The notes beneath the pieces were generated by a model. That model did not search any database. It was not told the DNA's origin and saw only the letters and a program-made list of their open reading frames with translations. 17,428 bases of DNA, taken from the IMG/VR virus record IMGVR_UViG_2657244986_000007, positions 1 to 17,428 of that record, one strand, 5' to 3'. Made by a program: the position numbers and the translations under genes. Positions 1 through 16,945 of the stretch are shown here, in pieces (the first letter of the stretch is position 1; the number at the start of each line of letters is the position of its first letter). This DNA comes from a virus (lineage: Duplodnaviria; Heunggongvirae; Uroviricota; Caudoviricetes).

Positions 1-96
1 GGCGATTGCATTATCACGGTAATGATTAACAGCCCATGACAGGCAGACGATGATGCAAATAACCAGAGCGGAGATAATTGCGGTGACTCTGCTCAT
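1..96 (-). CDS. Rz: Rz spanin (inner-membrane subunit), N-terminal 32 codons only; gene runs off the left edge
   Basis: Minus-strand translation from the ATG at 96 reads [31 protein letters not shown]..., recognised as lambda Rz. The ATG overlaps the R stop (ATGA). Confidence 0.85.
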
Positions 97-569
97 ACAT
101 CAATCTCTCTGACCGTTCCGCCCGCTTCTTTGAATTTTGCAATCAGGCTATCAGCCTTATGCTCGAACTGGCCATAACCAGCACCCGGCAGCGAAGCCCA
201 GATATTGCTGCAACGGTCGATTGCCTGACGGATATCACCGCGATCAATCATCGGTAAAGCGCCACGCTCTTTAATCTGCTGCAATGCCACAGCGTCCTGG
301 CTTTTCGGAGAGAAGTCTTTCAGGCCAAGCTGCTTACGATAGGCATCCCACCAACGGGAAAGAAGCTGGTAACGTCCGGCTGCTGTTGATTTGAGTTTTG
401 GGTTTAGCGTGACAAGTTTGCGAGGGTGATCGGAGTAATCAGTGAATAGCTCTCCGCCAACAATGACGTCATAACCATGATTTCTGGTTTTCTGACGTCC
501 GTTATCAGTCCCCTCTGACCACGCCAGCATATCGAGGAACGCCTTACGTTGATTATTGATTTCCACCAT
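93..569 (-). CDS. R: Endolysin R (lambda-type lytic transglycosylase), 158 aa
   Basis: ORF-track protein [39 protein letters not shown]... is recognised as essentially lambda R. Its start overlaps the S stop. Confidence 0.95.
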
Positions 570-876
570 CTTCTACTCCGGCTTTTTTAGCAGCGAAGCG
601 TTTGATAAGCGAACCAATCGAGTCAGTACCGATGTAGCCGATGAACACGCTCGTTATATAAGCGAGATTGCTACTTAGTCCGGCGAAGTCGAGAAGGTCA
701 CGAATGAACCAGGCGATAATGGCGCACATCGTTGCGTCGATTACTGTTTTTGTAAACGCACCGCCATTATATCTGCCGCGAAGGTACGCCATTGCAAACG
801 CAAGGATTGCCCCGATGCCTTGTTCCTTTGCCGCGAGAATGGCGGCTAACAGGTCATGTTTTTCTGGCATCTTCAT
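553..876 (-). CDS. S: Class I holin S with dual-start motif (Met1-Lys2-Met3)
   Basis: Protein [32 protein letters not shown]... is recognised as lambda S. The MKM start is the known S107/S105 dual-start arrangement. Confidence 0.95.
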
Positions 877-1002
877 GTCTTACCCCCAATAAGGGGATTT
901 GCTCTATTTAATTAGGAATAAGGTCGATTACTGATAGAACAAATCCAGGCTACTGTGTTTAGTAATCAGATTTGTTCGTGACCGATATGCACGGGCAAAA
1001 CG

Positions 1003-1040
1003 GCAGGAGGTTGTTAGCGCAACCTCTTGCCACCCGCTTT
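1003..1040 (-). other. GC-rich hairpin followed by GTTTTGCCC in the S leader
   Basis: Minus strand reads GGCAAGAGGTTG-CGCTA-ACAACCTCCTGCC then GTTTTG. I believe the same structure exists in the lambda S upstream region; function unassigned. Confidence 0.35.
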
Positions 1041-1167
1041 CACGAAGCCAGCCATTGAGCTGGTTTTCTTTTATGCAAAGCACACCGCACCGTAGCCACA
1101 GCGGATAAGGTGATTATTTTTGTCTGTCTGGTATTTGGTTTGATGTGCTTTCAGAAAGGCCGTGCTT

Positions 1168-1201
1168 AAAACGCAAAAAGCCCCGAGCTATTAACTCAGG
1201 G
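1168..1201 (-). terminator. tR'-like intrinsic terminator
   Basis: Minus strand: GCCCTGAG-TTAATAG-CTCGGGGC (8-bp stem with one G.U) followed by TTTTTGCGTTTT, about 60 nt downstream of the predicted pR' start. Confidence 0.7.
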
Positions 1202-1232
1202 CTTTATTTAACGAGTGCATTTATCCATCGTT
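1172..1232 (-). ncRNA. Short pR' leader transcript (6S-RNA analogue, about 60 nt)
   Basis: Inferred from promoter and terminator positions; transcript ends were not measured. Confidence 0.4.
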
Positions 1233-1270
1233 GAGTCAAATTTACCCAACTTTATTCAAAAAGTCAATAT
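1232..1270 (-). promoter_or_regulatory. Late promoter pR' with Q-utilisation (qut) region
   Basis: Minus strand has TTGACT (plus 1262-1267), a 17-bp spacer and TAAATT (plus 1239-1244), directly downstream of the Q stop, as in lambda. Confidence 0.7.
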
Positions 1271-1309
1271 TATGCCGTTAATATGTTGCCATCCGTGGCA
1301 ATCATGCTG

Positions 1310-1933
1310 CTAACGTGTGACCGCATTCAAAATGTTGTCTGCGATTGACTCTTCTTTGTGGCATTGCACCACCAGAGCGTCATACAGCGGCTTAACAGTG
1401 CGTGACCAGGTGGGTTGGGTAAGATTTGGGATTAGCATCGTCACAGCGCGATATGCGGCGCTTGCTGGCATCCTTGAATAGCCGACACCTTTGCATCTTC
1501 CGCATTCTTTCTCAACAACTCTCCCCCACTGCTCTGTTTTTGCTATATCAACCGCACGGCCTGTACCGTGGCAATCTCTGCATCTTGCGCCCGGCGTCGC
1601 GGCACTACGGCAATAATCCGCATAAGCGAATGTTGCGAGCACTTGCAGTACCTTTGCCTTAGTATTTCCTTCAAGCTTTGCCACACCACGGTATTTCCCC
1701 GATACCTTGTGTGCAAATTGCATCAGATAGTTGATAGCCTTTTGTTTGTCGTTCTGGCTGAGTTCGTGCTTACCACAGAATGCAGCCATGCCGAATCCGG
1801 CTTGTGATTGCGCCATCCCCATAGCAGCCATCACATCAGTACCGGAAAGAGAGTCAGAAGCCGTGGCCCGTGGTGAGTCACTCATCATCGGGCTTTTTGG
1901 CGAATGAAATTTAGCTACGCTTTCGAGTCTCAT
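1310..1933 (-). CDS. Q: Late-gene antiterminator Q, 207 aa
   Basis: Protein [44 protein letters not shown]... is recognised as lambda Q, with its Cys-rich zinc-binding region. The start overlaps the upstream gene's stop (ATGA). Confidence 0.95.
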
Positions 1934-8813: not shown

Positions 8814-10166
<1,353 letters not shown>

Positions 10167-10470: not shown

Positions 10471-11368
<898 letters not shown>

Positions 11369-13581: not shown

Positions 13582-14061
13582 ATGAAAGTCTGCTCAAGAT
13601 GCCATCAACAGAAGGAAGAAAGGGACTTTCAAATCAGAAGAGCATCCAGAGATGGATTAACTGCCGCTTGCCGGGCTTGCCTGGCTGAATACGACAAAGA
13701 ACGCGCTGGATTGCCACATCGAGTATCAGCAAGGAGAGAATATCAATCATCGGAACGCGGAAGAGAACGGTGTAACGCAGCCAAAAAGCGGTTCATTCAG
13801 AGCAACCCATGGAAAAGAAAAGCCCACATCATTGTGGGTAATTTTTTGCGCGACGGTAAGCTAATCCGACCACCACAATGTGAGTGCTGCGGATCAGAAT
13901 GTAAACCACAGGCGCACCACTGCGACTACAGCAAACCAACCGATGTGATGTGGCTCTGCAAGTCATGTCATGTCGAGTGGCACAAACATAACAAACCTAT
14001 CTACCCAGACGAGGAACCAGTAACTCTCCCCTTCCCTCGTCACGCTATTCACGCAATTTAA
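13582..14061 (+). CDS. HNH-family endonuclease, 159 aa
   Basis: Cys pairs CSRCH, CRAC and CECCG, plus ...QAHHCDYSKPTDVMWLCKSCHVEWH, consistent with an HNH/zinc-binding nuclease motif. Confidence 0.7.
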   Translation: MKVCSRCHQQKEERDFQIRRASRDGLTAACRACLAEYDKERAGLPHRVSARREYQSSERGRERCNAAKKRFIQSNPWKRKAHIIVGNFLRDGKLIRPPQCECCGSECKPQAHHCDYSKPTDVMWLCKSCHVEWHKHNKPIYPDEEPVTLPFPRHAIHAI

Positions 14062-16144: not shown

Positions 16145-16945
16145 ATGACCATCCACTTTCACGGCAGCCCAATATGGGGGGATGAGCATGCCCCTACAGA
16201 TATGCTGATTAAAGCCCTTTACCGTGATGGTGGGGCTTTTGTTTCATTTGCCAGACCAGAGCAGATGAAAAAGATTGCCATGTTCCCTTGTGATATACGC
16301 CTTGATAACGGCGCTTTTAGCGACTGGATGAAAGCATTAAAGAAAGGCACTCCGGTAGACTGGAGTAAGAGGCGAGCAAAATTCTACGACTTTGTTGGGA
16401 AGTGGTTCAGCAGAATTGAATGGTTTCTTATACCTGACGTTATCGAAGGGACAGAGGCAGAAAACGACGAGCAGATTGAGTTGGTTCCTGATTGGCTAAA
16501 ATCAAAAGCGGTTCCGGTCTGGCATACCGACGAATCAATTGAACGTCTTTTACGCCTTTCTGGCAAATTTGAATGGGTGGCGATTGGATGCTGCGGCCCA
16601 CACAGGCACATACGCTCTAAATGGTGGGAACAGAGAATGGATGAAGTTTTCACTGAGCTTTATATCAATCGTAATTTGAAAGTGAAAATTCATGGTCTTC
16701 GAATGCTCGACGTGAGAGTTCTTGGTATGTATCCGTTCGCCAGTGCGGATTCTACTAATGTTGCTGTTAACGTACCGAAGACAGAGAAGCGATTTCCTGA
16801 GATTACTGACAAACTGGCACGTACAGCTGTACTTCGCGCTGCTATTGAAAAGGTGCACCCGCCATCGATATCAGCATGGGTAGACAGAAAGATGAGAGAG
16901 CCGGCGCAAGCCGGTTTTTTATTTGAATTCACCGACGCCGCTTAA
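16145..16945 (+). CDS. Protein of unknown function, 266 aa
   Basis: Long ORF preceded by GGGGA. No motif I can assign with confidence (no P-loop, no PP-loop, no HTH recognised). Confidence 0.75.
   Translation: MTIHFHGSPIWGDEHAPTDMLIKALYRDGGAFVSFARPEQMKKIAMFPCDIRLDNGAFSDWMKALKKGTPVDWSKRRAKFYDFVGKWFSRIEWFLIPDVIEGTEAENDEQIELVPDWLKSKAVPVWHTDESIERLLRLSGKFEWVAIGCCGPHRHIRSKWWEQRMDEVFTELYINRNLKVKIHGLRMLDVRVLGMYPFASADSTNVAVNVPKTEKRFPEITDKLARTAVLRAAIEKVHPPSISAWVDRKMREPAQAGFLFEFTDAA
16899..16924 (+). terminator. Intrinsic-terminator-like hairpin with a GCAA tetraloop inside the last 15 codons of the 16145 gene
   Basis: CCGGC-GCAA-GCCGG followed by TTTTTTATTT. Confidence 0.55.

Follow-up and report, generated by a model that had tools for sequence, protein, structure and literature searches.

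Phage P22 offers the closest described counterpart of the locus studied here. Like phages 21, phi80 and 82, it makes a short late RNA regulated by antitermination, according to PMC7547250, which cites Roberts et al. 1976 for this statement. For the P22 late leader we rely on the GenBank annotation of the phage and on secondary citations of this kind. Lambda makes a 194-nt 6S RNA (lambda positions 44587-44780), which ends at lambda tR'. In the lambda Q-loading complex sigma region 4 occupies a -35-like element, and the Q protein forms a nozzle on the RNA exit channel, by which the formation of the terminator hairpin is blocked (PMC9388147). The consensus of the scrunched sigma-dependent pause is T+14 N Y+16 G+17 (PMC9191641). 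Lambda Q and the P22 gene 23 protein (gp23) have been reported to substitute for each other (PMC8022706). A further relative, StxS, is an Hfq-bound regulatory sRNA that originates from the constitutive pR' transcript of Stx phages and is ended at tR' (PMC7547250).

In this work we focused on the late control region of a window of 17,428 nucleotides, i.e. the whole stretch of DNA that was analysed, from the IMG/VR record IMGVR_UViG_2657244986_000007. A first-pass annotation had described a late promoter of lambda type followed by a leader of a different kind, and had asked whether Q could still engage there. Our analysis indicates, with little doubt, that the element is the cassette by which a P22-like lambdoid prophage normally controls its late genes, composed of a lambda-family Q, pR', qut and a P22-type tR'. 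The element is already known, since it is the annotated late switch of P22 and its leader is common to many phages and E. coli prophages.

Methods

The late region was aligned with lambda (43800-45600) and with the late control region of P22 (NC_002371.2, 37186-37945). Positions relative to the transcription start are given with a sign, and positions without a sign refer to the window. For the survey of module junctions, IMG/VR and one-genome-per-species contigs were scanned for the -35 to +8 core of the promoter, leaving positions -28 and -18 free, and the 146 occurrences were classified. The scan of one-genome-per-species contigs yielded mostly lambda contamination.

Genome context and late operon

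E. coli ST12468 (NZ_CP103694.1) carries a P22-like prophage with which the whole window is 100% identical. The first late gene under Q control encodes a holin:

553-876, minus strand: holin S; PF05106 (E = 2.4e-30), 'phage holin, lambda family' in RefSeq

This holin is of the lambda S type, whereas P22 has the gene 13 holin. After S, the late operon of the ST12468 prophage is intact, with genes for endolysin, Rz, terminase, portal, scaffold and a P22-family coat protein, and the virion genes of the prophage are of P22 type.

The endolysin gene (93-569, minus strand, 158 aa), designated 'glycoside hydrolase family 24' by RefSeq, had no Pfam match at E ≤ 0.001. ORFs without a Pfam match were also found in the immunity and early-left region, at 10787-11290 (minus strand), 9690-10166 (plus strand), 13582-14061 (plus strand) and 16145-16945 (plus strand). 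One of them, encoding 167 aa, is located between N and the recombination genes, with its neighbours on the other strand. Such positions are often occupied by phage morons or exclusion genes.

The Q gene and the late promoter

All features of the cassette (Q, promoter, terminator and late genes) lie on the minus strand. Q is encoded immediately upstream of the late promoter, and its stop codon precedes the -35 hexamer by 42 nt. The features from Q to the pause site are the following:

1310-1933, minus strand: Q, late-gene antiterminator of lambda type, 207 aa; identified by PF03589 and identity with lambda Q
1262-1267, minus strand: -35 hexamer TTGACT of pR' (P late); promoter scan, same in lambda and P22, P22 promoter annotation
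1245-1261, minus strand: 17-nt spacer TTTTGAATAAAGTTGGG, which holds the Q binding element (QBE); 15/17 positions match lambda and 17/17 match P22
1239-1244, minus strand: -10 hexamer TAAATT of pR'; promoter scan, same in lambda and P22
1234-1239, minus strand: -35-like TTGACT at -7 to -2, 1 bp upstream of the -10-like pause element; identical to lambda
1227-1232, minus strand: start site (+1 = A1232) and -10-like AACGAT at +1 to +6, the sigma-dependent pause element; identical to lambda and P22
1216-1219, minus strand: pause-site tetramer TGCA at +14 to +17 (TTCG in lambda); from the alignment

The Q ORF belongs to the Pfam family PF03589 (Antiterm, E = 1.3e-57), and its product is identical to lambda Q at 206 of 207 residues, the sole change being L135Q. 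At the nucleotide level 611 of 624 positions are shared with lambda Q and 594 of 624 with P22 gene 23, so that the window Q is closer to lambda Q than to gp23. Although gene 23 of P22 thus differs from the window Q at 30 of 624 nucleotides, the sequence from -38 to +38 is identical in the two.

A consensus promoter scan did not by itself exceed chance, with 1 site found and 2.3 expected in shuffled sequences. We take pR' as real because it is nearly identical to lambda pR' and to P late of P22. From the end of Q through +8 the window is identical to lambda except at -39, -28 and -18. Within the -35 to +8 interval this corresponds to 41 of 43 positions, the exceptions being A to T at -28 (1260) and A to G at -18 (1250). 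Position -39 carries a base found in neither lambda nor P22. The identity from -17 to +8 includes the -35-like TTGACT, AACGAT, G+7 and G+8. Nickels et al. (2002) are said to have described the -35-like element as the position of sigma region 4 in the lambda Q-loading complex. The nucleotide taken as +1, A1232, is the first A of AACGAT and is homologous to the annotated 5' nucleotide of the P22 late RNA. The first-pass annotation had named a lambda-type Q and pR' with the hexamers TTGACT and TAAATT, and both are borne out by these comparisons.

The P22 record annotates 'P late or P R'', 'qut (gene 23 protein utilization) site' and 'P late RNA 5' nt' at the homologous positions. At +31 to +59 it places 't late or tR', antiterminated by gene 23 protein', an action noted there as permitting full late transcription. 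The window therefore has the same sequence and spacing as the annotated P22 promoter, qut, +1 and terminator, and it shares with P22 the architecture, the distance to the terminator and a protein of the Q family. The HK544 record annotates the promoter as well, and in the QBE spacer a 'lambda Qut site with 2bp mismatch'.

With respect to the pause consensus, the window keeps T+14 and C+16 and has A in place of G+17. This A+17 is also present in P22 and in every short-leader phage, and is therefore compatible with function. Given this base, the lifetime or the position of the pause may differ from those in lambda.

Inside Q, the opposite strand carries an antisense unit:

1633-1646, plus strand: CII/C1 box TTGC-N6-TTGC
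1660-1665, plus strand: -10-like TAGTAT
1866-1898, plus strand: hairpin GCCCG...CGGGC followed by T5

The a23 (paQ) promoter, the C1 binding site and the a23 terminator of P22 are annotated at exactly the positions of this unit.

The late terminator

The terminator follows the pause site and precedes the first late gene:

1168-1205, minus strand: tR' (t late), intrinsic terminator; terminator scan, folding, homology to the P22 and Emek annotations

Its hairpin (1205-1177) comprises 11-13 bp and is followed by T5-GCG-T4 at 1179-1168. The GC core, GCCCTGAG / CTCGGGGC (GCCCUGAG/CUCGGGGC), occupies 1202-1195 / 1187-1180, i.e. +31 to +53, and is extended by three A-U pairs. The fold has a predicted energy of -19.1 kcal/mol by itself (z = -4.7) and of -23.3 kcal/mol together with the 5' leader (z = -4.1), and none of 200 shuffled sequences folded as well. 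The stem and the T-tract are the same as in P22; the loop is TTAATAG in the window and TTTAACCG in P22, and the leader beyond the terminator is about 78% identical between the two. The Emek record annotates the same rho-independent terminator. An RNA terminated here would measure about 58-60 nt.

Over 20 distinct alleles the tR' stem pairs in 96.8% of cells, with one compensatory pair, which 19 of 500 shuffles equalled. The alleles are nearly identical, so that covariation lends thin support, and we dropped it as independent proof of the hairpin. An Rfam search of the whole window at gathering thresholds gave no family, and with E-values up to 5 on 850-1330 the hits were chance-level terminator look-alikes.

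The hairpin starts 11-14 nt past the pause site. Q-modified lambda complexes go on scrunching to about +24 to +28 before they escape (PMC4005639). On these two grounds, escape would meet the terminator almost at once. Such a near-immediate terminator would be compatible with function, because Q would already be loaded by then.

The following sequence of events is proposed from the work on lambda and P22, from which we take the pause, the loading of Q and the readthrough. RNA polymerase would start constitutively at A1232, and rebinding of sigma-70 to the -10-like AACGAT would hold it in a pause near +16. When Q is missing, transcription would terminate at the hairpin and U-tract, releasing a leader RNA of about 58-60 nt and leaving the lysis and virion genes silent. 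Once made from the early rightward operon, Q would bind the QBE between -35 and -10 and load onto the paused complex together with NusA. The modified complex would then pass tR' and the terminators beyond it, and transcribe S, R, Rz and the morphogenesis genes. The P22 annotation and the reported exchange of lambda Q with gp23 lend indirect support to such a Q-dependent readthrough.

Comparison with lambda: replacement of the leader

Lambda and the window share the promoter hexamers, the -35-like TTGACT, the -10-like AACGAT, T+14 and C+16. They differ at +9, +11, +15 and +17, have CTCGTT at +18 to +23 in common, and show no homology from there on until the S-proximal part of the leader. Two segments can thus be distinguished:

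1047-1209, minus strand: leader segment +24 to +186, which replaces lambda +24 to +428; from blastn
877-1046, minus strand: S-proximal leader, 98.8% identical to lambda; from the alignment and blastn

In the first segment 163 nt of the window stand in for 405 nt of lambda, which comprise most of the 6S RNA, lambda tR' and orf-64. Identity with lambda resumes at about position 1047 and runs for 171 nt to the start codon of S. Neither the alignment nor blastn revealed a homologue of lambda 44587-44780 past +23. The predicted leader RNA of about 60 nt thus takes the place of the 6S RNA, and orf-64 is absent. The first-pass annotation had read the region in this way, as a divergence from lambda that leads within some 60 nt to an intrinsic terminator and leaves no 194-nt 6S RNA. 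This reading holds, as homology stops at +23, the hairpin at 1205-1177 would end transcription at about +58 to +60, and the 6S region was found neither by blastn with a word size of 7 nor in the lambda alignment.

Such a short leader might have arisen as a deletion derivative of the lambda 6S leader, in which lambda tR' was moved near the promoter. In a MAFFT alignment the hairpin of the window did fall opposite that of lambda tR', with a scatter of matching positions. However, blastn with a word size of 7 gave nothing significant between +24 to +186 of the window and +24 to +428 of lambda. The two stems have different sequences and architectures (GCCCUGAG/CUCGGGGC here, AAUCCCGAAAC.../...GUUUCGGGAUU in lambda), and the 125 nt past the window terminator are also unrelated to lambda. 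We therefore rejected this origin, which we consider highly improbable, on account of the different stem architecture and the lack of residual similarity. A leader of P22 type remains the preferred reading.

Further structures were seen in this part of the window. The S-proximal leader contains a hairpin at 1031-1002 (minus strand, 12 bp) followed by GUUUUG to position 996, which is common to the window and lambda. Its pairing is interrupted by one A-C mismatch in the window and complete in lambda and HK544, and the predicted energy is -25.8 kcal/mol (z = -3.6). It could serve as a back-up terminator or as an RNA-processing structure upstream of S. A literature search on tandem lambda late terminators found nothing. 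On the plus strand, a terminator-like hairpin at 1044-1067, followed by TTTTCTTTT, opposes the late transcript at the right-hand border of the leader segment unrelated to lambda. P22 has a hairpin at the same place with another stem register, and no upstream plus-strand gene is evident.

Between tR' and S, lambda carries a segment (44866-44952; 1067-1153 in our lambda locus L001) that is absent from the window. It is 82-83% similar to a stretch of rV5-like phages labelled tRNA-Lys or tRNA-OTHER in some records. ARAGORN found no tRNA in the window or in the lambda leader. An ORF of 51 aa in the leader (928-1083) was discarded as spurious, as it has no Pfam match, is left un-annotated by RefSeq in the identical prophage and corresponds to no lambda gene in the homologous part.

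Distribution of the leaders and position of the module junction

The leader was searched in 50,697 phage records, 79 of which cover at least 80% of it. These include HK544, Emek, HK97, HK106, the mEp phages and Sf101, as well as P22 and its relatives at about 78% identity. The full-length lambda 6S leader was present in 24 phage records, mostly lambda or lambda derivatives. Over 187 nt the short leader is 95-99.5% identical between the window and HK544, HK97, HK106, mEp234, mEp213 and Emek, and over the Q-to-S interval the identity is 97-99%. Some of the phages show variants of their own. In mEp213 and mEp043 the lambda QBE is paired with the short leader. HK97 (L005, locus 795-800) has one extra base between -10 and +1 (TTGACATCAACGAT), by which the -35-like element becomes TTGACA and its spacing to the -10-like element wider. 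Emek (L004) has T to C at -2 (TTGACC) and C to G at +20. A record named 'Campylobacter phage CJLB-4' is 100% lambda over the leader.

In 5,426 complete E. coli genomes, the short promoter-leader segment was covered at 80% or more in at least 265, with some match in 545. For the lambda 6S segment the corresponding numbers are 408 and 440, the best matches listed being mostly laboratory strains. At least nine of these genomes contain an exact copy of the 225-base sequence from the window.

The 146 loci of the junction survey fall into the following combinations of QBE allele (bases at -28 and -18) and leader type:

TG with short leader: 69 loci
AA with 6S leader: 34 loci
AA with short leader: 16 loci
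AG with short leader: 9 loci
TG with 6S leader: 8 loci
TA with short leader: 4 loci
AG with 6S leader: 3 loci
any QBE allele with other short leaders: 3 loci

Among these loci the leader type is matched without exception by the bases at +9 and +11, and with few exceptions by those at +15 and +17 (r2 of 0.87 to 1.0 among them). The QBE positions -28 and -18, in contrast, are almost unlinked to it (r2 of 0.07-0.08), their alleles being seen with both leaders. Since the positions from +9 to +17 track the leader type and the QBE alleles do not, the junction between lambda-type and P22-type modules can be placed in the invariant stretch between -18 and +9. The segment +1 to +60 is kept in 92 of the 92 short-type loci with enough flanking sequence, 34 of which diverge directly after the terminator. 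As the segment is kept while its flanks diverge, pR' to tR' forms a unit that stays together. The window carries the commonest allele of +1 to +66, with 53 identical loci among the 146 surveyed. The module junction with lambda appears to be old, widespread and functional. The suggestion of a mosaic breakpoint in the Q-loading region was therefore right in that two modules do join within qut, between -18 and +9; it is not an unusual arrangement, P22 being identical from -38 to +38.

Two further short-leader types, L090/L110 and L083 (IMG/VR), were found behind the same Q and pR', with different early transcribed bases (GTTAATGCC and GTTGCTGCC). In L090/L110 the stem, of 9 bp, also differs (GCCCCGCGG/CCGTGGGGC), and its distance from +1 is unchanged. 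No variation at T+14 or C+16 was seen in any of the four leader types, and +17 reads G in lambda, A in P22-type leaders, and C in both L090/L110 and L083.

The lambda pR' core was also retrieved (L126-L147) from assemblies of unrelated species, for example of Pseudoxanthomonas, Psychrobacter, Kitasatospora, Shewanella and Oceanobacillus. The contigs are tiny or about 48.4 kb long, with coverage near 1, and look like lambda DNA contamination and not like prophages.

These data bear on the possibility that a recent recombination in qut has damaged the engagement of Q, so that Q loads poorly and the prophage is defective or leaky for late genes. Six substitutions separate the window from lambda between -28 and +17, one of which removes the consensus G+17, and lambda homology ends at +23. 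The same six states are, however, carried by P22 and many plaque-forming phages, the allele is the commonest one in the survey, lambda Q and P22 Q reportedly replace each other (PMC8022706), and the downstream late operon of the prophage is intact. We regard such damage as scarcely credible. The concern raised in the first-pass annotation that Q engagement may be impaired is accordingly not upheld: P22 annotates the same elements, the plaque-forming phages P22, HK97, HK544, Emek and mEp carry the allele, and the -35-like TTGACT, the -10-like AACGAT, T+14 and C+16 are all present. Every combination of the QBE variants at -28 and -18 is found naturally with Q proteins at least 98% identical to the window Q. 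Conservation, taken together with the published exchange of lambda Q and P22 gp23, indicates that the Q-loading signals are functional, small natural polymorphisms aside.

A different role can be imagined for the leader RNA itself, by analogy with StxS. In lysogens the RNA of about 60 nt might also act as a constitutive trans-acting, Hfq-dependent sRNA that alters host physiology. Promoters of the pR' type are constitutive, and the short transcript of Stx phages is an Hfq-bound regulatory sRNA (PMC7547250). The leader of the window would likewise be a short RNA from an antitermination-controlled late promoter, ended at tR' by a strong hairpin and U-tract, with an A-rich single-stranded AAAUAAA before the hairpin. 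Its +1 to +60 segment is also retained in all 92 short-type loci, including those whose flanks differ. StxS, however, goes with another family of Q and another leader, arises by processing of a longer precursor and has a demonstrated function; the RNA of the window is a predicted one. Moreover, qut and terminator function already explain the conservation of +1 to +23 and of the hairpin, and with them that of +1 to +60. Linker and loop differ in the L090 and L083 types and in P22, and the Rfam search gave no family. An additional sRNA role is thus unlikely, and we keep to the reading of the RNA as the terminated leader of the late switch.

Association of Q codon 135 with the Q binding element

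The single residue that separates the window Q from lambda Q lies at the tip of the zinc-ribbon 'arm' (residues 114-152) and adjoins E134, whose change to K gives lambda Q a higher affinity for DNA (PMC9388147). Among 88-90 distinct Q-to-leader haplotypes, codon 135 was the Q site most associated with the QBE alleles, with r2 of 0.21 for -28 and 0.27 for -18. For the -18 allele Fisher's test gave p ~1e-6. These values were computed over the haplotypes in a sample of 120 loci and ignore phylogeny. No association was seen between codon 135 and the leader type (r2 of 0.02). Q sites nearer to the promoter were more weakly associated with the QBE alleles than codon 135, which hints at co-adaptation rather than plain linkage. 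All four combinations of the codon 135 and QBE alleles exist, and the window carries the commonest one, Q135 with T-28/G-18 (codon at 1529-1531, QBE positions 1260 and 1250). The association of L/Q135 with the QBE may reflect a natural fine-tuning of the affinity of Q for DNA, i.e. co-adaptation, or linkage.

Conclusions

As this is the textbook late switch of P22, the element carries little weight as a discovery. The comparison does show that lambda-type Q commonly occurs in nature with either of two leaders, the 194-nt 6S leader of lambda and the short one. The natural variation at +9, +11, +15 and +17, set against the invariance of AACGATGG, T+14, C+16 and TCGTT, constitutes a comparative data set for sigma-dependent pausing and Q loading.
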